A stretch of 64,000 nucleotides of DNA from Alphaproteobacteria bacterium (GTDB taxonomy: Bacteria; Pseudomonadota; Alphaproteobacteria; UBA11073). Location: assembly GCA_965246945.1 (NCBI GenBank), contig CBDFFW010000001.1, forward strand, positions 1,645,639-1,709,638. Reading direction: 5' to 3'. The position numbers and the translations under genes are program-made. Shown in pieces: positions 2,381-59,700 of the stretch; the stretch's first letter is position 1, and every line of letters begins with the position of its first letter. The notes under the pieces were generated by a model. It was not told the DNA's origin. It saw only the letters and a list, made by a program, of their open reading frames with translations, and searched no databases.

Positions 2381-3148
2381 GTGAAAGAATCTATTCAAAA
2401 TATCGCTCAAAATCACGCACAAGCGTTTGGCGAAAAGCACGTCACGCCAGCTGAAAAAACGGCTGGTGTACGGGCGGTTTTTAACCGCGTGGCGGGTAAA
2501 TATGATGTGATGAATGATGCAATGTCGCTTGGAGCGCATCGTATCTGGAAACAGTTATTTGTGTATGATGTCGCCCCGAAAAGTGACGAACAGATTCTGG
2601 ATGTGGCAGGCGGCACTGGCGATATCAGCCGCTTGCTGTATAGCAGTACCCGCGGGCAAGCGAAAATAACAGTCTGCGATCCCAGTTTGGCGATGATGAA
2701 AATCGGCCGCCAGCGCAGCCTGGCCCGCGGCATCACTGTCATTGATTGGGTAGAAGGCATGGCTGAAAAATTGCCATTTAGCGACGCGCAATTTGATGCC
2801 TACACCATTTCATTCGGCCTGCGGAATGTGACTGATTTAGCGGTCGGCTTGCGCGAGGCTTACCGTGTATTAAAACCAGGCGGCCGCTTTTTCTGTATGG
2901 AATTCACGCAGGTCGAAACGCCATGGCTGGCGGCGCTTTACCGCGCCTACAACCGCTATGCCCTGCCCGCGTTGGGTCAGCTATTGGCGCAAGATGCAGA
3001 AAGTTATCAATATCTGGCCGAAAGCATTGCGCGTTTTCCCAACGCCGACGCACTTACTACATTAATCGCACAGGCTGGCTTCACCAATACTCGGCATCAT
3101 TTTTTAAGCGGCGGGATTGTGGCAATTCATTCTGCATACAAAAAATGA
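2381..3148 (+). CDS. ubiE: Ubiquinone/menaquinone biosynthesis C-methyltransferase UbiE; GTG start
   Basis: Class I SAM-methyltransferase motif I LDVAGGTGD. The whole protein reads as UbiE/MenG family (YDVMNDAMSLGAHRIWK, PGGRFFCMEF). Confidence 0.9.
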   Translation: MKESIQNIAQNHAQAFGEKHVTPAEKTAGVRAVFNRVAGKYDVMNDAMSLGAHRIWKQLFVYDVAPKSDEQILDVAGGTGDISRLLYSSTRGQAKITVCDPSLAMMKIGRQRSLARGITVIDWVEGMAEKLPFSDAQFDAYTISFGLRNVTDLAVGLREAYRVLKPGGRFFCMEFTQVETPWLAALYRAYNRYALPALGQLLAQDAESYQYLAESIARFPNADALTTLIAQAGFTNTRHHFLSGGIVAIHSAYKK

Positions 3149-3194
3149 TTGCTTTAAAAATAGTTGCATACAAATCTATTTATGGAAGGTCGAT

Positions 3195-3707
3195 ATGACA
3201 GAAGATACAGCTAAAACACGCATTATTTTTGTAGGTGTGGAACGCCATAAATCATTATATGGTCAGGGTTTAAAAGCTCCCCACACGGAATTTATGTGTT
3301 ATGTGCAATTACCACAATCAGAATCTTATGAACAAGTATCTGGGCAAGGATTGCGTCTAATGATAACGGCTAATGTTACTAAATTGGATGGAACAAAATT
3401 ATTTGATGGCAAAAATCCAATTTTAGTTGTTTCAGCTGCTAAAGCTTTAATTTCAGCGCCAACTAGAGAACATCAAATTCAAATCGCTAGCCGAATTCAA
3501 AATATTGAATTTCAAATGAGTTTACCTTACTTGAAATTTGAAAAAGGTATCAATCCTGAAGAATTTTATGTTCGCGCTGATGCAGTAGAGCAATATGTAG
3601 GAGCCAGTCATAAACTTAATATTCCAGGTACGCACGATTATGCTCGAGGTATTATTGCGACTAGAGGCTATGATTTTGATGGTATTCCAATTCCTGCATC
3701 ATTTTAG
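3195..3707 (+). CDS. Hypothetical protein in an AT-rich inserted islet
   Basis: Uninterrupted 170-aa frame with RBS-like GGAAGG 4 nt upstream of ATG 3195. The longer ORF from 3117 seems unlikely to be real. Composition is visibly AT-richer than the flanking ubiE and coaBC. No motif recognised. Confidence 0.45.
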   Translation: MTEDTAKTRIIFVGVERHKSLYGQGLKAPHTEFMCYVQLPQSESYEQVSGQGLRLMITANVTKLDGTKLFDGKNPILVVSAAKALISAPTREHQIQIASRIQNIEFQMSLPYLKFEKGINPEEFYVRADAVEQYVGASHKLNIPGTHDYARGIIATRGYDFDGIPIPASF

Positions 3708-4992: not shown

Positions 4993-5550
4993 TTGCCACA
5001 TTCAAAGCAAATGAATACTGAAACCATGCATTCCACCACGGTGATCGCCGTGAAAAAAGACGGGCAGACGGTGATTGCGGCCGATGGGCAGGTATCGCTG
5101 GGCCCGACCATCATCAAAGATAATGCGCGCAAGGTGCGCCGCCTGGCTGGTGATAAAGTGATTGCCGGTTTTGCCGGAGCAACCGCCGATGCATTTACGC
5201 TATTTGAACGCTTGGAAAAAAAGCTGGAGCAATATCCCACCCAGCTGCTGCGTGCCTGTGTGGAGCTGGCCAAAGACTGGCGGACCGACCGTTATTTGCG
5301 CAAACTGGAAGCATTATTACTGGTCGCCGATAAAGAAACGCTGCTGATGATCACCGGCAATGGCGATGTGATTGAACCCAGCGATGGGTTGATGGCCATC
5401 GGCAGTGGCGGCAACTACGCGCTATCCGCTGGCCGCGCATTATATGATCTGGAAGGCCACACCGCCGAAGCCATCGCCCGCCGCGCCCTCAAAATCGCAG
5501 GTGAGATTTGCGTATATACCAACCATAATGTGACGCTGGAGGAAATTTGA
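4993..5550 (+). CDS. hslV: ATP-dependent protease subunit HslV; alternative starts at 5011 or 5026, with the N-terminal propeptide typical of alphaproteobacteria
   Basis: The [23 protein letters not shown] motif places the catalytic Thr after a short leader. Ntn-hydrolase family. Confidence 0.9.
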
Positions 5551-5594
5551 TTCTTAGCACGCAGAATTTGTAATCGGAAACAAAGGTTAATACA

Positions 5595-6920
5595 TTGCAT
5601 CTAATGCAATCCTTAACGCCCAAACACATCGTCGCGGAATTAGACCGGTTTATTGTCGGGCAAAATGCGGCCAAAAAAGCGGTGGCGCTAGCGCTGCGTA
5701 ATCGCTGGCGGCGGATGAGCCTGCCGGAAGATCTGCGCGCGGAGGTAACGCCGAAAAATATTTTGATGATTGGACCGACAGGTGTAGGGAAAACGGAAAT
5801 TGCGCGCCGTTTGGCCAAACTGGCCGATGCACCGTTTATTAAAGTGGAAGCGACAAAATTTACCGAAGTGGGTTATGTGGGCCGCGATGTGGATAGCATT
5901 ATCCGCGATTTGCTCGATAACGCGATTATTCAAAAGCGTGCACAACAACGCCGCAGTGTCGAAGAACAGGCCAAGGAAGCAACCCTTAACCGCATTATTG
6001 AGGCACTGGTTGGCGCGCAGGCCAGCCCAGCCACGCGGGACAGCTTTCGCAAAAAACTGGATGCCGGCGAATTGGAAGATACCGAAATTGAAGTAGAAGT
6101 GAATGATAATGGCAGTTCGGCCCTGCCCACTTTTGATATTCCTGGGATGCCAGGCGCGCAAATGGGCATGCTAAATATCGGTGATATGCTGGGCAAGGCG
6201 CTCGGCACCCGCACGCGCCGCCGCAAGCTAACCGTAGCGCAAGCGCGTGAAGTATTGGCGACCGAAGAAGCCGATAAATTGTTGGATGAAGAAAAACTAA
6301 TTAGCGAAGCCAAAACCCTGGTTGAACAAAACGGCATTGTGTTTTTGGATGAGGTCGACAAAATTGCCGCGCGCAGCGAAGGCCGCAGTGGCGGCGGTGA
6401 TGTCTCCCGCGAAGGCGTACAGCGCGATTTACTGCCGCTGATTGAAGGCACGACCGTGAGCACCAAGCACGGCCCGGTGCAAACTGATCATATTTTATTC
6501 ATCGCTTCCGGCGCATTTCATGTGTCTAAACCATCCGACTTATTGCCGGAATTGCAAGGCCGCCTGCCAATCCGTGTGGAATTAGAAGCCTTGAAGGTGG
6601 ACGATTTTAAACGCATTTTGATTGAGCCTGAACATAGCCTGCTGAAGCAATATATCGCGTTGTTAGATGTAGAGGGCGTGACGTTGACGGTGGAACCGGC
6701 CGCCGTGGACGCGCTGGCGCAACTGGCATTTGATATCAATAACAGCGTCGAAAATATTGGGGCGCGGCGTTTGCATACGGTGCTGGAAAAATTGCTGGAA
6801 GATATCAGCTTTAATGCCAGCGAACGCGGCGGCGAAGCGATTACGATTGATGAGCCATATGTGCAAGAACGCCTGGCCGAACTGGCGAAAAACACCGATT
6901 TAAGCCGGTATGTTTTGTGA
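5595..6920 (+). CDS. hslU: ATP-dependent protease ATPase subunit HslU; the start may be ATG 5604
   Basis: AAA+ Walker [16 protein letters not shown], Walker [11 protein letters not shown], sensor and I-domain. Adjacent to hslV. Confidence 0.95.
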
Positions 6921-28851: not shown

Positions 28852-28959
28852 ACCTCATCCTGAGGAGCATCGTAGATGCGTCTCGAAAGATGCTCCAGCG
28901 GAATCTCCTTTAAGTATCCTTCGAGACACCCTGTATTACCGCTCATCAAAATGAGGTAA
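28852..28959. repeat. MITE-like palindromic repeat, family A, copy 1 (right end degenerate)
   Basis: Reads ACCTCATCCTGAGGAG...GCGTCTCGAAAGATGCTCCA...GTATCCTTCGAGAC...ATGAGGT. It shares the 16-bp terminal inverted repeat and inner inverted repeat with copies at 49455 and 49903. It fills the ligA-kinase spacer. Confidence 0.7.
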
Positions 28960-45637: not shown

Positions 45638-47638
45638 GTGATGAGCGACTCGGGCGCCCGTCCACGTGTGCGGCGTTTTCATATTGAGCTGGATAACCCG
45701 CTGCCTGCGTTTAATCAGGGCGGGGCGCAGGCTTATGCGGTCACCAATAACACCGAATACCGCGATACGATTTATGCCTTGTTGTGCCCCAGTAATATGC
45801 CATTGCGTTTGGAAATGGGCATATCCCTGCAAAATACCACCACTCACCATTTTCATAATTTAATCGATTTCGAAATCGTCCATGGCAGTGGTTTGACGGA
45901 AGAATATATGGGGTTGATCCTGCCCAAACCATTGGGCCGGCCGCTAGTGGCCGATCTCAATACCCATTTCATCCCCTGGAAGGAAGAGGAACTGCGGCAA
46001 TATCTGATTAAGCCGATGGTGGAAGTGCTAAATACCTTGCATGACCGTGTTTTATCGCATGGCAGTATTTCGCCGCTGCAAATGTGGCGGGAAGGTGCGG
46101 CACAACCGGTTAAACTAGCGCAATGCTTCACCACGCTGCCTGGGTTAAATCAGCCGGTATTTTTTGAAACCATCGAACGCGCCATTGCCCAACCCTTTGC
46201 CAAAGGGGACGGGCGTACAGAAGACGATTTGTTCAGCTTGGGTGCCACCATTTATTTTTTAGCCGTGGGCCGTAACCCCCTGGCGCATCTATCGCCTGAA
46301 GAATTAATCAGAGCGCGCATGGAAATCAGCACGCCGGTTTTGTTGTTAAACACCGCGCGCGTGCCCAGCAGTTTATCTGAACTGGTAAAGGGTTTGTTAT
46401 CGGATCAACAGCGTTCACGCCTGACGATCCGCGATGTGATGGATTGGTGCGATGGTCAGCGCCTGGTGCCCAAACAACCGGTTTCCGTTGGGAAAGCCAA
46501 ACGCAGTATCATTTTTAACGGGCAGGAATTTCTAAAACCAACATTATTGGCGCAAGCGCTGGCCAGCGCGCCGGAAGAAGCCATTAAATTTGTTTTGGGC
46601 CCTGATTTTCTACGCTGGTGCCAACGCAGCGGCGCCATTGATGTTGCGCTATATCAAAAATTGGCAGAGGTGTTGGGCAGTTCCGAAAATGGTAAATCTC
46701 CGGCGGTGACCTTAACCCAGGTGATTGCCTGTTTAGATCCCGCCGGCCCTTTGCGTTATAAAGAATTTAGTTTTGGCCTGGCTGGTATTGGCACCGCTGC
46801 CATGCTCGCATTTTTACAAAACAACGCAAATTTAAAAAACGCCGTGGCAGAAATTGTGCAGAGCGATTTGCCCAGTTTTTGGGCCGGCCTGCCCGGCAAC
46901 AGTTTTGCGTTTAACACCACCATTGCCCAGGAATTATCGGCGCTGCGCCATTTAATTACGCAAACCCAGCCAGGTTATGGGTTGGAGCGCATGCTGTATA
47001 CGCTGAATCGGCAATTGCCTTGCCAATCCGAAACCTGCCATGGTTTTTATGCCCTGCAATCGCGTGATTTATTACGGGCCTTGGATGGTTACATTCAAAA
47101 AGGCCAGCGCCCACAGGAATTGCTGGACCGGCATAGCGCCGCATTTTTAGGCAGCCGCCATAACAGCCGGTCGGATGAAAATTTGCTGAAATTGCTTAAT
47201 CCCAGCCAGGAATTGGGTGAGCGGCGCATTGGCCTGTTGAAGTTACTGGCGACCCTGCAAGCGCGGTTTAAACTGGGGCCGTTAACCCATTTAACCGGCT
47301 GGCTGGCCGAATTGGTGCGGCCGTCTTTGGATAATTTACACAGCCAAACCATTAAAGAAGACATCGCCAAGTCTTTGCTGCGGGTCGCCAAACATGGTGA
47401 TTTGAACGAATTGCTGGCCTTGCTGGATAGCGGCAGTTTGCAATTGCGCGATCAGCGTTTATTTAAAAGCGCACGCCAAGAATATCAAAATTTGCAAAAG
47501 CAAATTAACGAGATCGATCAATGGGTCGCGCAAAAAGATGCGCTGGGCCATGCCGTCGGCCGGCAAGTGGCCAGTGTTACCGCTGTGGTTCTGGCGCTGT
47601 TAGCCACAGTGGTTATCATGCTGGCACAGAAATTTTAA
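45638..47638 (+). CDS. Tail-anchored membrane protein with an N-terminal degenerate protein-kinase-like (pseudokinase) domain
   Basis: Residues ~20-270 follow the Hanks kinase subdomain order with catalytic residues replaced. Beta3 RDTIYALL lacks the Lys. The catalytic loop is HGSISPLQM in place of HRDxKPxN. The Mg site is QCF in place of DFG. An activation and P+1 segment FFETIERA is followed by DDLFSLGATIYFLAVGRNPL, the subdomain IX signature. The C-terminal helical region ends in a TM helix VASVTAVVLALLATVVIMLAQKF. Confidence 0.6.
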   Translation: MMSDSGARPRVRRFHIELDNPLPAFNQGGAQAYAVTNNTEYRDTIYALLCPSNMPLRLEMGISLQNTTTHHFHNLIDFEIVHGSGLTEEYMGLILPKPLGRPLVADLNTHFIPWKEEELRQYLIKPMVEVLNTLHDRVLSHGSISPLQMWREGAAQPVKLAQCFTTLPGLNQPVFFETIERAIAQPFAKGDGRTEDDLFSLGATIYFLAVGRNPLAHLSPEELIRARMEISTPVLLLNTARVPSSLSELVKGLLSDQQRSRLTIRDVMDWCDGQRLVPKQPVSVGKAKRSIIFNGQEFLKPTLLAQALASAPEEAIKFVLGPDFLRWCQRSGAIDVALYQKLAEVLGSSENGKSPAVTLTQVIACLDPAGPLRYKEFSFGLAGIGTAAMLAFLQNNANLKNAVAEIVQSDLPSFWAGLPGNSFAFNTTIAQELSALRHLITQTQPGYGLERMLYTLNRQLPCQSETCHGFYALQSRDLLRALDGYIQKGQRPQELLDRHSAAFLGSRHNSRSDENLLKLLNPSQELGERRIGLLKLLATLQARFKLGPLTHLTGWLAELVRPSLDNLHSQTIKEDIAKSLLRVAKHGDLNELLALLDSGSLQLRDQRLFKSARQEYQNLQKQINEIDQWVAQKDALGHAVGRQVASVTAVVLALLATVVIMLAQKF

Positions 47639-47648
47639 GGGACAAATC

Positions 47649-48122
47649 ATGGCCAAAGAAAAAGCCGCAAAACCGGTTAAAGCCGGTGCCGAAAATAAAA
47701 CCGGTATGGCCTGGCTCTTGGTCTGGCCGATTATTTTGGCGATGAGTGCGGTTTTCCCGCCGCTATTTATTTTCGTGGCCGGGGTGATCCCCACTTTGGT
47801 CGCGCGGTTTGTCGATCCCCATCCCGAACGCTCGCTCACCGTTTGTGCCGGCGCAGGCAACGCGGTCGGCTGCGTTTACTGGCTGATCTGGACAGTCACC
47901 CATCAATATTTAAGCTGGCAAAGCATTTTGGGATTAATGTTATTGCCAACCACCTGGTTAGTTTTGCTCGGCGCAACTGGCGCGGGCTGGGTGGTGTGGC
48001 TAATAATACCGTCCATGGTATCCGCCCAGGTAACTCAGCATCAACTGGCCATACGCGCACGGCTGGTCAAAGCCCAAGAGAAAATGAGCAAAGAATGGAA
48101 TCAAGGCATCAATGCGCCTTAA
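47649..48122 (+). CDS. Small polytopic membrane protein (about four TM helices), translationally coupled to the pseudokinase gene
   Basis: Begins 10 nt after the upstream stop. Hydrophobic segments AWLLVWPIILAMSAVFPPLFIFVAGVIPTLVA, VGCVYWLIWTV, ILGLMLLPTTWLVLLGATGAGWVVWLII. Confidence 0.5.
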   Translation: MAKEKAAKPVKAGAENKTGMAWLLVWPIILAMSAVFPPLFIFVAGVIPTLVARFVDPHPERSLTVCAGAGNAVGCVYWLIWTVTHQYLSWQSILGLMLLPTTWLVLLGATGAGWVVWLIIPSMVSAQVTQHQLAIRARLVKAQEKMSKEWNQGINAP

Positions 48123-49187: not shown

Positions 49188-49222
49188 CCGTCAACCGGCG
49201 GCTATTATTTCAAAAAAAGCTT
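49188..49222. terminator. Possible bidirectional terminator hairpin
   Basis: AATAGCCG tcaac CGGCGGCTATT followed by ATTTCAAAAAAA. The stem is good but the U-tract is interrupted. Confidence 0.4.
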
Positions 49223-49454
49223 GACAATTTTGTCTATCATGATTACATTCCTATTAATCTGAATTGGCTGGCCAGCAATTCAGGAAGGTTATGACCTTAA
49301 GGGCGCGGGTCCGGCAAACAGCCTGTGCGAGCAATCAATACATCCCTTAAACGAGCCGGTCGATGTTTGCAAAAATCTCCCGGGAGTGTTTTTAAACCAT
49401 TCAATTAAAAGCAAAATGCATTATCCTTATTCTTAAAATAGCAATTTAGATATT

Positions 49455-49562
49455 ACTTCATCCTGAGGAGTGCCGCAGGCACGTCTCGAAGGGATGCTTA
49501 ACCTGGGTTATCTCACTGGAGTATCCTTCGAGACGCTGCTAAGCAGCTCCTCAGGATGAGGT
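49455..49562. repeat. MITE-like palindromic repeat, family A, copy 2
   Basis: ACTTCATCCTGAGGAG...GTCTCGAAGGGATGCT...AGTATCCTTCGAGAC...CTCCTCAGGATGAGGT. Both 16-bp terminal inverted repeats are intact. It ends 1-2 nt from the GIY-YIG stop codon. Confidence 0.7.
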
Positions 49563-49563
49563 T

Positions 49564-49863
49564 CTATAAGTGTTTCTTTTTATATCTTTCAGCCAGCATT
49601 GGCAGCAATTCATATTCTTTGCGGATCAATGCTTCTTTCTTATCGCGTCGCCAACCTTTAACTTGGCGCTCTGCTGCAATGGCATCCGTTATATTCAGAA
49701 AATTTTCAGCGAATACCAGGCGAACTGGGCGCCGCTTGAATGTATAACACGTTGGATGAAAACCCTGTTCATGCTGGCTCATCCGCAATTCAAATTCGCC
49801 GCGCGTCGTACCTACATAATAACTGTTATCCGCACAATGCAAAATATAGAGCCATGCGGACAT
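49564..49863 (-). CDS. GIY-YIG nuclease family protein (small YhbQ/UPF0213 type), intact
   Basis: MSAWLYILHCADNSYYVGTTRGEFELRMSQHEQG contains the GIY...YVG motifs and an Arg. The C-terminal ...KGWRRDKKEALI is typical of this family. 99 aa. Confidence 0.8.
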   Translation of the reverse strand: MSAWLYILHCADNSYYVGTTRGEFELRMSQHEQGFHPTCYTFKRRPVRLVFAENFLNITDAIAAERQVKGWRRDKKEALIRKEYELLPMLAERYKKKHL

Positions 49864-49902
49864 CCGCTAATCTTATTAAATAACTAGAATGTTTACAACT
49901 TA

Positions 49903-50010
49903 CCTCATCCTGAGGAGCGGCTGAAAGCCGTGTCTCGAAAGATGCTCCAACCAGGTACCTAGGTAAGCATCCTTCGAGACGAACGTTGAGCGTTCTCCTC
50001 AGGATGAGGT
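49903..50010. repeat. MITE-like palindromic repeat, family A, copy 3 (best preserved)
   Basis: ACCTCATCCTGAGGAG cggctgaaagccg TGTCTCGAAAGATGCTCC ... GCATCCTTCGAGAC ... TCCTCAGGATGAGGT. Perfect 16-bp terminal inverted repeats and nested inner inverted repeats. Confidence 0.75.
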
Positions 50011-50077
50011 TGGTGCAACATCATTTGCATCAAAATCCTTGCCTGCTCGCTGCCTTTACCGGTAAGCGTAAGGCAGC

Positions 50078-51286
50078 ATGAACATACACGAATATCAGGG
50101 CAAATCTATTCTGCAGGAATACGGGATTGCCACCCCCACCGGTTATCCAGCGCTGACCGTGGATGAAGCGGTTGCGGCCGCCAAAAAACTTCCAGGTCCG
50201 ATCTATGTGGTGAAGTCGCAAATCCATGCGGGCGGCCGTGGCGCTGGGCATTTCGAAAATGATCCTGAGCGTAAAAATGGTGGCGGCGTGCGCGTGGTTA
50301 AGTCTATTGATGCTGTGAAAGCGGCAGCCGAACAAATGCTCGGTCAAACTTTAGTTACCAAGCAAACCGGTGAAACCGGCAAACAAGTGCAGCGCCTCTA
50401 TATTGAAGCTGGCTGCGACATTAAACGCGAACTTTATCTGTCGATGTTGATCGACCGTGATACCTCACGCGTCACCTTTATCGCCTCAACCGAAGGCGGC
50501 ATGGATATCGAAGAAGTGGCCGAGCATCACCCTGAAAAAATTATGTCGGTGAATGTGGATCCCGCAGCTGGCCTCAGCGGTTTTCATTGCCGGAAATTAG
50601 CCTTTGGTTTGAAGCTGGAAAGCGGCGAGCAGGTTAAATCCTTCACCAAATTCGTCACCGCACTTTACCGCATGTTTGTGGAAAAAGATGCCTCGATGCT
50701 GGAAATCAATCCATTGGTTGTGACCGGCAAAGGCGAAATTATCGCTTTAGACGCGAAAATGGAATTCGACAGCAACGCGCTGTACCGCCACCCCGAAGTA
50801 GTGGCGATGCGCGATGAATCCGAAGAAGATGCGATGGATTTGGAAGCATCGAAAAACGAACTGAACTATGTGCGTTTGGATGGCAATATCGGCTGCATGG
50901 TCAACGGCGCGGGCCTGGCGATGGCGACCATGGACATCATTAAACTATATGGCGCAGAACCGGCTAACTTCTTAGACGTTGGCGGCGGCGCGACCAAAGA
51001 ACGCGTGATTGCAGCGTTTAAACTGATTATGTCAGACAAAAACGTTAAAGGCATTTTGGTCAACATCTTTGGCGGCATCATGCGCTGCGATATCATCGCG
51101 GGCGGCATTATCGAAGCGGTAAAAGAAGTATCGCTGAACGTGCCATTGGTCGTGCGTTTGGAAGGCACCAACGTTGAACTCGGCAAAAAAATGCTGAATG
51201 AAAGCGGTCTGCCAATCGTTGCCGGTGATAACTTGGCCGACGCTGCCGAAAAAATCGTGCACGAAGTACAAAAACGCGCGGCATAA
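50078..51286 (+). CDS. sucC: Succinyl-CoA ligase (ADP-forming) beta subunit
   Basis: [10 protein letters not shown]-terminus, ATP-grasp, CoA-ligase domain. Confidence 0.95.
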
Positions 51287-59259: not shown

Positions 59260-59700
59260 CTGTCATTCCCGCGCATGCGGGAATCTAGGATCAAAAATGC
59301 CGTTGTGCACAGCACAACGCCTAAATATAATCACTATATGCCTAAAGGCGGCTTTCTTTATATTTTAGCCAGTGGCCGCAACGGCACTTTATACATTGGC
59401 GTTATTAGCAACTTGCCACGCCGCTTGTATGAACATCAGAATGGTTTAATCAAAGGTTTTGCCTGGCGGCATGGCGTTGGGAAACTTGTTTATTACGAAG
59501 AATACAGCACCATTTGAAGCCACTGCCCGCGAAAAAGCGATGAAGAAATGGTATCGTTTATGGAAATTAAATACGATTGAAGCATTTAACCCAGAATGGC
59601 AGGATTTATCAGAATTACTGAATATGTAATTGTTTTTGCCATTGCGCTAACGCGTAATGTCTTCAGTATTCCTAGATTCCCGCATACGCGGGAATGACGA
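59260..59700. mobile_element. Small cassette: 30-bp hairpin terminal inverted repeats (family B) bracketing a frameshifted GIY-YIG gene
   Basis: Left end CTGTCATTCCCGCGCATGCGGGAATCTAGG. Right end CCTAGATTCCCGCATACGCGGGAATGACGA. The ends are inverted complements and each is itself a hairpin. The cassette abuts the fliL stop and the upstream gene's stop within 1-2 nt. Confidence 0.5.
59338..59629 (+). pseudogene. GIY-YIG nuclease family gene interrupted by a +1/-1 frameshift near 59515
   Basis: Frame A: MPKGGFLYILASGRNGTLYIGVISNLPRRLYEHQNG...YYEEYSTI then a stop. The next frame continues FEATAREKAMKKWYRLWKLNTIEAFNPEWQDLSELLNM, the conserved C-terminal half. The break is next to a short homopolymer (CCATTT). 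Confidence 0.6.

Follow-up and report, generated by a model that had tools for sequence, protein, structure and literature searches.

We examined a 64,000-nt stretch of DNA from an alphaproteobacterium of the lineage UBA11073 (assembly GCA_965246945.1, contig CBDFFW010000001.1; here called the window), in which a small gene for a GIY-YIG nuclease lies between two copies of a palindromic repeat of about 108 nt. Each copy of this repeat is a doublet of a half-site, here named H. The association of gene and repeat is obligate: in 84 of 85 loci with a homologous gene, at least one H was found within 260 nt of it. The gene and its repeats thus form a real and conserved composite, as a preliminary description of the locus, made from the sequence of the window, had claimed. 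We think it reasonably probable that the cassette is a unit of a nuclease and its cognate hairpin repeat, of the kind formed by the Ssn nucleases and their NTS repeats, which here consists of another nuclease clade and an unrelated, larger repeat.

The Ssn enzymes described by Chenal et al. (2025, Nat Commun, PMC11893778) are single-domain GIY-YIG nucleases for single-stranded DNA (ssDNA) that are flanked by hairpin repeats, termed NTS or SRM. As a kind, the association has been known since that report, and the preliminary description was mistaken in taking it to be undescribed. For H itself, its pairing with a GIY-YIG gene and the clade of nucleases flanked by it, full-text literature searches found no published description.

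Half-site H and its association with the nuclease gene

Alignment of both strands of both copies revealed that the unit of about 108 nt is a doublet of a half-site of about 46 nt. H consists, in this order, of a conserved O box (CCTCATCCTGAGGAG), a small G+C-rich hairpin and a conserved I box (CGTCTCGAAGGATGC). The small hairpin has a different sequence in every copy, and a CGTC motif 3' of it is near-invariant. Since the O and I boxes are partly complementary (CATCCT..GAG versus CTC..AGGATG), one H on its own can form a long imperfect hairpin; alternatively, two inverted H can pair with each other, resulting in a branched fold of the whole doublet.

A profile of the half-site detected exactly six copies in the window, which form three doublets. 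Two of them flank the gene (nhmmer E = 4.3e-6 on the plus strand and 4.3e-9 on the minus strand for the left doublet, 4e-11 and 4e-12 for the right one), and the third is a solo doublet with a decayed right half (5e-8 and 0.023). Also, the 14-mer CTCATCCTGAGGAG occurs five times in the window at no more than 2 mismatches, versus 0.07 occurrences expected. Terminal inverted repeats of 16 bp had been ascribed to both copies at the gene. The outer arms ACCTCATCCTGAGGAG and CTCCTCAGGATGAGGT are indeed complementary at 16 of 16 positions in the right copy, whereas the left copy (ACTTCATCC...) has one mismatch. The nested inner inverted repeat (GTCTCGAA(A/G)GATGC / GCATCCTTCGAGAC) was recovered in both. 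Folding z-scores relative to shuffled sequences were -7.1 to -8.4 for the left and -9.1 to -9.8 for the right doublet, treated as DNA or RNA, which agrees with the earlier view that each copy can fold. The predicted fold of a whole doublet is branched, however, with an outer and an inner stem plus two small side hairpins, and not one plain long hairpin; the halves of about 46 nt can fold independently as well.

Homologues of the gene with 60 to 71% identity were found in Stellaceae, Magnetospirillum, Microvirga and many metagenomes. Metagenomes were scanned with an alignment of homologues, from which the best 80 loci of 513 relatives were taken; all counts from the side of the gene refer to non-redundant loci (n = 85), and the scans of sequence collections are biased to canonical half-sites. 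H stood on both sides of the gene in 54 of the 85 loci, and its density was 6.0 per kb near the gene versus 0.10 per kb at a distance of more than 600 nt. In 42 loci the nearest half-sites run H> gene <H, so the gene occupies the loop of a convergent doublet; the opposite order, <H gene H>, was counted in 7, including the window. The gene lies exactly in the loop of the palindrome in three loci (L005, L029 and L119), and the layout of the window, with two full doublets, was found again in Methylobacterium bullatum. The idea that the subtype of the half-site tracks the protein tree was rejected: short and long subtypes cluster only partly with clades of the protein, at a mean identity of 62% within and 58% between subtypes, and this clustering is a weak signal confounded by linkage.

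At some loci, other repeats were observed next to the gene. In the metagenomic loci L189, L192, L200 and L203, the I box (TCGAAGGA) is repeated in tandem, with a period of about 16 or 33 nt, beside the nuclease gene, either downstream or upstream of it. On a plasmid of Sphingomonas parapaucimobilis (NZ_CP155752.1; L209, positions 2850-3330), a GIY-YIG gene with 46% identity lies between nrdR and a gene for an RNA methyltransferase and is flanked by a diverged palindromic motif, GGGCTTCGACTTCGCTCAGCCTGAACGG, and its inverse, with the repeat GCTTCGACTTCGCTCAGSC. This different motif hints at further pairs of nuclease and repeat.

When 81 half-sites of the same length were aligned without gaps, the proposed hairpin had a covariation score of 0.253, compared to 0.074 after column shuffles (none of 500 reached 0.253) and 0.03 to 0.06 with the partners slid. 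At four pairs of the tip, both sides had changed in 23 to 35 of the 81 sequences each. Two pairs between the O and I boxes covary too, in the combinations CATCCT/AGGATG, CATGCT/AGCATG and CACCCT/AGGGTG. Among the 370 distinct half-sites of all fetched loci, 294 different tip sequences occur. In orthologous pairs of loci, the O and I boxes are near-invariant within diverged flanks, and the tips change compensatorily. From this covariation and the conservation of the boxes, we conclude that selection acts on the structure of the hairpin and on the sequence of the O and I boxes. An asymmetry of the strands from G-T pairs was also considered and not used as evidence; the G15-T33 wobble is kept in 80 of 81 sequences, and pair 7-43 is non-standard in 34 of 81.

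From the side of the repeat, the picture differs. The third doublet of the window already indicated that there are further copies of the repeat, a point raised for checking in the preliminary description, and a search for the O-hairpin-I pattern in one genome per species yielded at least 120 loci, listed among others for Reyranella, Bradyrhizobium, Bosea, Methylocystis, Rhizobium, Devosia, Microvirga, Asaia, Parvibaculum and unnamed Alphaproteobacteria. H is therefore a widespread intergenic repeat of Alphaproteobacteria that annotators and assemblers will meet. Among the matches listed, only 2 of the 120 genome loci of 8 kb selected by the repeat contain the gene, as do 0 of the 75 loci with H on viral contigs of IMG/VR. 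H thus also occurs in solo copies at a distance from any gene of this family. Solo doublets in the listed genome loci are convergent in 44 cases (median length, 107.5 nt) and divergent in 25 (median spacer, 25 nt). The midpoints of H are depleted in long stop-free frames, with 58% lying inside such frames compared to 90% of all bases.

On a contig of a metagenome-assembled Bradyrhizobium genome (L054, 1-2460), divergent doublets occupy three successive spacers about 1.1 to 1.2 kb apart, and each is a heterodimer of one half-site in the CATCCT/AGGATG form and one in the CATGCT/AGCATG form. Of the listed genome loci with H, a single one carries a label other than Alphaproteobacteria or Proteobacteria; this 3.8-kb contig is part of a bin of Akkermansiaceae (Verrucomicrobia; L052), probably due to a binning error.

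In orthologous pairs with 78 to 96% nucleotide identity, the position of the gene was unchanged. The comparison of the spacer between the lipoprotein gene and sucC with that of a relative, proposed as a check in the preliminary description, was possible with a related contig, L207, whose flanking genes are 83 to 87% identical to those of the window. Here, the left doublet is kept at the orthologous site (5318-5423), and in the adjoining region (5428-5918) the nuclease gene is cut to its last 39 codons and the right doublet is absent. An unrelated open reading frame (ORF) of 121 aa (5553-5918, minus strand, no Pfam annotation) stands in place of the 5' part of the gene and of the right doublet, and the lipoprotein gene of the window, encoding 330 aa, is absent from L207. 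Since the nuclease gene decays easily, it behaves as dispensable or semi-selfish. The two orthologous left doublets differ in one side hairpin (GCTGCTAAGCAGC at 49536-49548 of the window versus GCCATTTCATGGC at 5397-5409 of L207): 8 of 13 positions are changed within a context of about 83% identity, and every pair of the stem is retained. This suggests replacement by gene conversion or a very fast compensatory change.

The nuclease clade and its relation to known systems

The only Pfam match of the 99-aa protein is GIY-YIG (PF01541, E = 2.8e-12, residues 4 to 76), and none of the NCBIfam models matches it. Y6, Y16, G18, R27, H31 and E65 are invariant among 35 aligned relatives and all present in the protein of the window; the alignment also contains a basic C-terminal helix, ERQVKGWRRxKKEALI. 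An AlphaFold model showed one compact domain with a pLDDT (predicted local distance difference test) of 90.8. Among solved structures, the closest relatives are the UPF0213 proteins BH0048 (1ZG2) and EF2693 (1YWL), with E values of about 1e-16 for a profile of the clade and about 1e-7 for the protein of the window alone, so that the earlier label "YhbQ-like" is a fair one. An N-terminal motif of the YIL-C-DGS-Y-G-T type is shared with UPF0213/YhbQ/YazA proteins. No report of associated repeats was found in the literature on YhbQ or YazA. In a structure search with the model, the nearest folds after the UPF0213 structures were Slx1 and the plant Slx1-like protein HIGLE, and I-TevI had rank 43. 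Slx1 and HIGLE are structure-selective nucleases; unlike the protein studied here, Slx1 carries an additional zinc-finger domain and has Slx4 as its partner.

Searching 1.84 billion cluster representatives with the clade profile returned 84 proteins at E <= 1e-30 and 4,594 at E <= 1e-10. The profile of the H-flanked clade (A2) gives 163 to 176 bits for its own members, compared to 62 to 63 for the UPF0213 structures 1ZG2 and 1YWL and 38 to 61 for Ssn-type proteins. Conversely, the Ssn-type profile (A5) gives 140 to 144 bits for its own clade, 30 to 34 for the UPF0213 structures and 44 to 56 for the H clade, with 44 bits for the protein of the window. The two profiles are homologous (hhalign probability, 99.4%; 28% identity). 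These bit scores, together with identities of 26 to 36% to Ssn-type proteins, set the H-flanked proteins apart as a third, distinct clade of small GIY-YIG nucleases. Membership in the Ssn family was defined by cd10448 or by blastp with E < 1e-10 and at least 75% coverage to SsnA CAX49033.1 (PMC11893778). The protein of the window is probably outside the family so defined or at its edge.

In Neisseria meningitidis, SsnA, a protein of 94 aa with GIY-YIG as its single domain (Conserved Domain Database, cd10448), cuts ssDNA only, adjacent to the hairpin repeat NTS (CGTCATTCCCGCGMAVGCGGGAATCYRG), and SRM repeats are located near 71% of the homologous ssn genes (PMC11893778). For Ssn, a strong co-occurrence of repeat and gene, 81%, has been reported. 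The parallels to the cassette described here are clear. Its protein also is a single-domain GIY-YIG protein in the range of 95 to 100 aa, and inverted hairpin repeats, which are also dispersed in the genome and abundant in Alphaproteobacteria, stand on either side of the gene. In contrast to NTS and SRM, H is larger, with about 46 nt per half-site, has two boxes around a hairpin of free sequence and usually occurs as a doublet of about 108 nt.

The window itself contains both systems. About 10 kb from the H-flanked gene lies a canonical Ssn cassette with a second GIY-YIG gene, which is of the cd10448 type and carries a frameshift (Table 1). The SRM consensus, HGTCWYN(0-2)YYVSBRHN(0-5)WNVSBRGN(0-2)RNCYNB (PMC11893778), has only two matches in the window, both around this gene. 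Its relatives are found in Neisseriaceae (Alysiella, 59% identity), Methylotenera, Roseibium and candidate-phyla bacteria. Two cassettes of nuclease and repeat in one small genome, one of them decayed, constitute a natural test of cross-specificity.

Other hairpin repeats of Alphaproteobacteria had to be distinguished from H. Repetitive extragenic palindromes (REPs) with a CGTC tag occur mainly in this class, form head-to-head dimers that "lack a dedicated transposase" and have a terminal CGTC, an 8- to 9-bp stem starting with AT and a CCA tail (Di Nocera et al. 2013, PMC3733652). H also forms alphaproteobacterial hairpin dimers and has a near-invariant CGTC by its hairpin, but this motif is terminal in the CGTC-tagged REPs and 3' of the small hairpin in H. 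Judged by their sequences, it is the SRM/NTS repeats of the Ssn system that correspond to the CGTC-tagged REPs. The peptides of CGTC-tagged REPs (VIPAKAGI and similar ones) likewise correspond to SRM/NTS, and an identity of H with these REPs was ruled out.

Candidate explanations of the cassette

If the cassette is a nuclease/repeat unit of the Ssn-NTS kind, as we favor, the 99-aa protein would, by analogy with the SsnA enzymes and from its Slx1-like fold, bind H extruded as a hairpin in ssDNA. Intermediates of replication, transformation or conjugation may provide this ssDNA. The bound protein would then nick near H in a strand-specific manner, and the dispersed genomic doublets would be its substrates. 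Candidate routes by which doublets could spread are nuclease-assisted propagation, homing into the spacers of doublets and gene conversion between copies.

Several points weigh against this explanation. The SRM consensus fits none of the three H doublets. With the product of the window's own SRM-flanked Ssn-type gene, the protein shares only 26% identity (E = 1e-5), it shares 36% identity (pairwise E = 9e-12) with the Ssn-type homologue of Neisseriaceae (Alysiella), and by sequence comparison it is as close to UPF0213 proteins, which are not known to have associated repeats, as to the Ssn-type proteins. Because of these identities and this equal closeness, its nuclease activity may differ from that of Ssn. 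Moreover, the physical linkage of gene and half-sites makes a part of their association heritable rather than functional, and covariation in a DNA palindrome is by itself equally compatible with an ssDNA hairpin, a cruciform and an RNA structure.

Should the proposed mechanism hold, the cassette would offer a new pair of enzyme and site for site-specific cutting of ssDNA, with a recognition element that is longer than NTS/SRM and built differently. We know of no function assigned in bacteria to the UPF0213/YhbQ-Slx1 side of the superfamily, and the principle of a small GIY-YIG protein with its own hairpin repeat would reach past cd10448 toward this side, giving UPF0213/YhbQ proteins a concrete candidate substrate. 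Pairs of nuclease and repeat were regarded as useful tools already by the authors of the Ssn study (PMC11893778).

A possible but rather doubtful extension is that H doublets and the UPF0213-like nuclease are an independent second lineage of partnerships between nuclease and hairpin repeat, and not merely a divergent Ssn system. If this were true, all small single-domain GIY-YIG proteins, including the Slx1-related UPF0213/YhbQ group, would be hairpin-specific ssDNA nucleases, each with a repeat of its own, and the repeats would be replicators similar to REPINs (REP doublets forming hairpins) that are kept by a nuclease instead of a transposase. The tip of free sequence could then turn over by gene conversion, as the tips of the window and L207 differ entirely and yet pair.

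It is unlikely, in our estimation, that H> gene <H is a minimal transposon whose doublets of about 108 bp are derivatives similar to REPINs or miniature inverted-repeat transposable elements (MITEs), mobilized in trans by the GIY-YIG protein. The layout, with a gene in the loop of a palindrome that also occurs solo, does resemble that of an insertion sequence (IS) or of a REP with its REP-associated tyrosine transposase (RAYT). Gene neighborhoods differ between lineages, and one doublet (L047) is located in a spacer that is only about 20 nt long in the orthologous L106, the two spacers being too diverged to define the ends of the doublet. The same idea of mobility was raised for NTS-ssnA-NTS, which was likened to an IS or a REP-RAYT unit (PMC11893778). 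As in REPIN-RAYT systems, H is an imperfect hairpin that occurs in inverted pairs and in many solo copies, its gene is flanked by inverted units, and the position of the gene is stable among close relatives; its partner, however, is a GIY-YIG nuclease and not an HUH (Y1) tyrosine transposase, and H lacks the GTAG head. The doublets share with MITEs the terminal inverted symmetry, the short solo copies and a longer, gene-bearing form, but have neither a target-site duplication nor a transposase. Such duplications, for which a check of the outer ends had been suggested earlier, were absent at 45 doublet ends, where conservation falls within 1 to 2 nt outside CCTC. The linked protein is a bare nuclease domain, and GIY-YIG domains are, to our knowledge, not known to catalyze strand transfer.

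Further findings also speak against mobility. Copies of H in the same genome share the boxes and differ in tips and loops, so that the doublets were not copied recently from a single master; in the window, no two copies agree in their tips and loops, in line with the large number of tip variants overall. No locus had two copies of the gene within flanks of 2.5 kb, and orthologous positions are stable. The gene is rare on plasmids, where six records with 38 to 54% identity were found; two of these are replicons of Methylobacterium, 1.6 and 2.8 Mb in size. Cultured phages had no close homologue. Of the "MITE-nuclease composite" proposed in the preliminary description, the composite of nuclease and repeat thus stands, whereas the label of a MITE found no support.

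Homing endonucleases with a GIY-YIG catalytic domain are a known class, and a homing-type selfish gene would be copied by repair into the spacer between half-sites after the nuclease had cut there, the doublets existing for other reasons. In favor of this, the gene stands in the spacer between inverted half-sites, which converge in 42 loci and diverge in 7, and it decays readily, being truncated in L207, and the canonical ssnA of the window is frameshifted. We nevertheless regard homing as improbable, as the single domain of 99 aa lacks the DNA-binding domain used by homing GIY-YIG enzymes, UPF0213 and Slx1 match its structure far better than I-TevI does, and there is no intron or conserved target gene, the neighborhoods varying by lineage. 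A homing gene would also be expected in several copies; none was seen in the flanks of 2.5 kb, and the 195 listed loci selected by the repeat contained two genes.

We also give little credence to the view that H serves the host as a regulatory or structural repeat, for instance as a terminator, an mRNA stabilizer, a site for nucleoid proteins or possibly an RNA, and that the nuclease gene is merely regulated or insulated by it. REP-type repeats with such roles are known (PMC3733652). The left doublet comes immediately after the stop codon of the gene, the solo copy fills a spacer between co-directional genes, and at some loci the I box provides AAGGA 9 to 14 nt before the start codon. The depletion of H in long stop-free frames also fits a role of this kind. 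However, it leaves unexplained the 60-fold enrichment of H beside one small gene family across the whole class, as well as the diverged repeat beside the diverged relative in Sphingomonas. The repeats have no T-tract and were not called as intrinsic terminators, and a consensus scan for promoters and terminators returned nothing specific at them. Rfam 15 had no match at the gathering score for the repeat in the window and 15 related loci, and a relaxed search gave only chance-level matches of the microRNA type. The characterized Ssn enzymes, moreover, do not act on RNA (PMC11893778).

Features and gene neighborhood in the window

The features of the two cassettes and the solo doublet are compiled in Table 1. 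The nuclease gene was found between the two repeat copies and the whole unit between a lipoprotein gene and sucC, as initially described. The distance of the left copy from the stop codon, given before as 1 to 2 nt, is 1 nt, and that of the right copy from the start codon is 38 nt and not 40 nt. The identity of sucC is supported by its domains ATP-grasp_2 (E = 5e-74) and Ligase_CoA; it starts at 50078 and is divergent from the nuclease gene. The upstream ORF of 330 aa has a lipobox, LLTGC, in its translation and no Pfam match. The spacer between the nuclease gene and the right doublet is presumably the 5' untranslated or promoter region of the gene; a consensus scan found no promoter above the threshold in it.

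Table 1. Positions of nuclease genes and repeats in the window
Feature	Position	Strand	Remarks
GIY-YIG nuclease gene	49564-49863	minus	intact, 99 aa, single domain
Spacer, start codon to right doublet	49864-49901	minus	38 nt, read from sequence
Left doublet, convergent (type A)	49455-49562, 108 nt		H> ~49454-49498, <H ~49518-49563; ends 1 nt from nuclease stop
Right doublet, type A	49902-50010, 109 nt		H> ~49901-49948, <H ~49964-50011; between nuclease gene and sucC
Solo doublet, decayed right half	28852-28958		fills ligA/histidine-kinase spacer; no GIY-YIG gene nearby
Canonical Ssn cassette	59261-59699		SRM TGTCATTCCCGCGCATGCGGGAATCTAG at 59261-59288 (+); SRM CGTCATTCCCGCGTATGCGGGAATCTAG at 59672-59699 (-)
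cd10448-type GIY-YIG gene (GFLYILASGRNGTLYIGV...)	~59340-59628		between both SRMs; frameshift near 59505-59517

Further upstream, an ORF of 666 aa (45638-48122) showed a sub-threshold match to protein kinases (E = 5.6e-4, 19.8 bits versus a cut-off of 31.7). It is followed by a membrane-like ORF of 157 aa without a family, and both are kept in L207. Rfam had no match across 49300-50150. The non-coding stretch upstream of the left doublet (49220-49440, corresponding to 5070-5318 of L207) has 83% identity and is thus conserved about as well as the flanking genes. It contains a promoter-like TTGACA-17-TACATT at 49221-49249 and internal palindromes, e.g., CTGAATTGGCTGGCCAGCAATTCAG, and could be a leader of sucCD or a small RNA.

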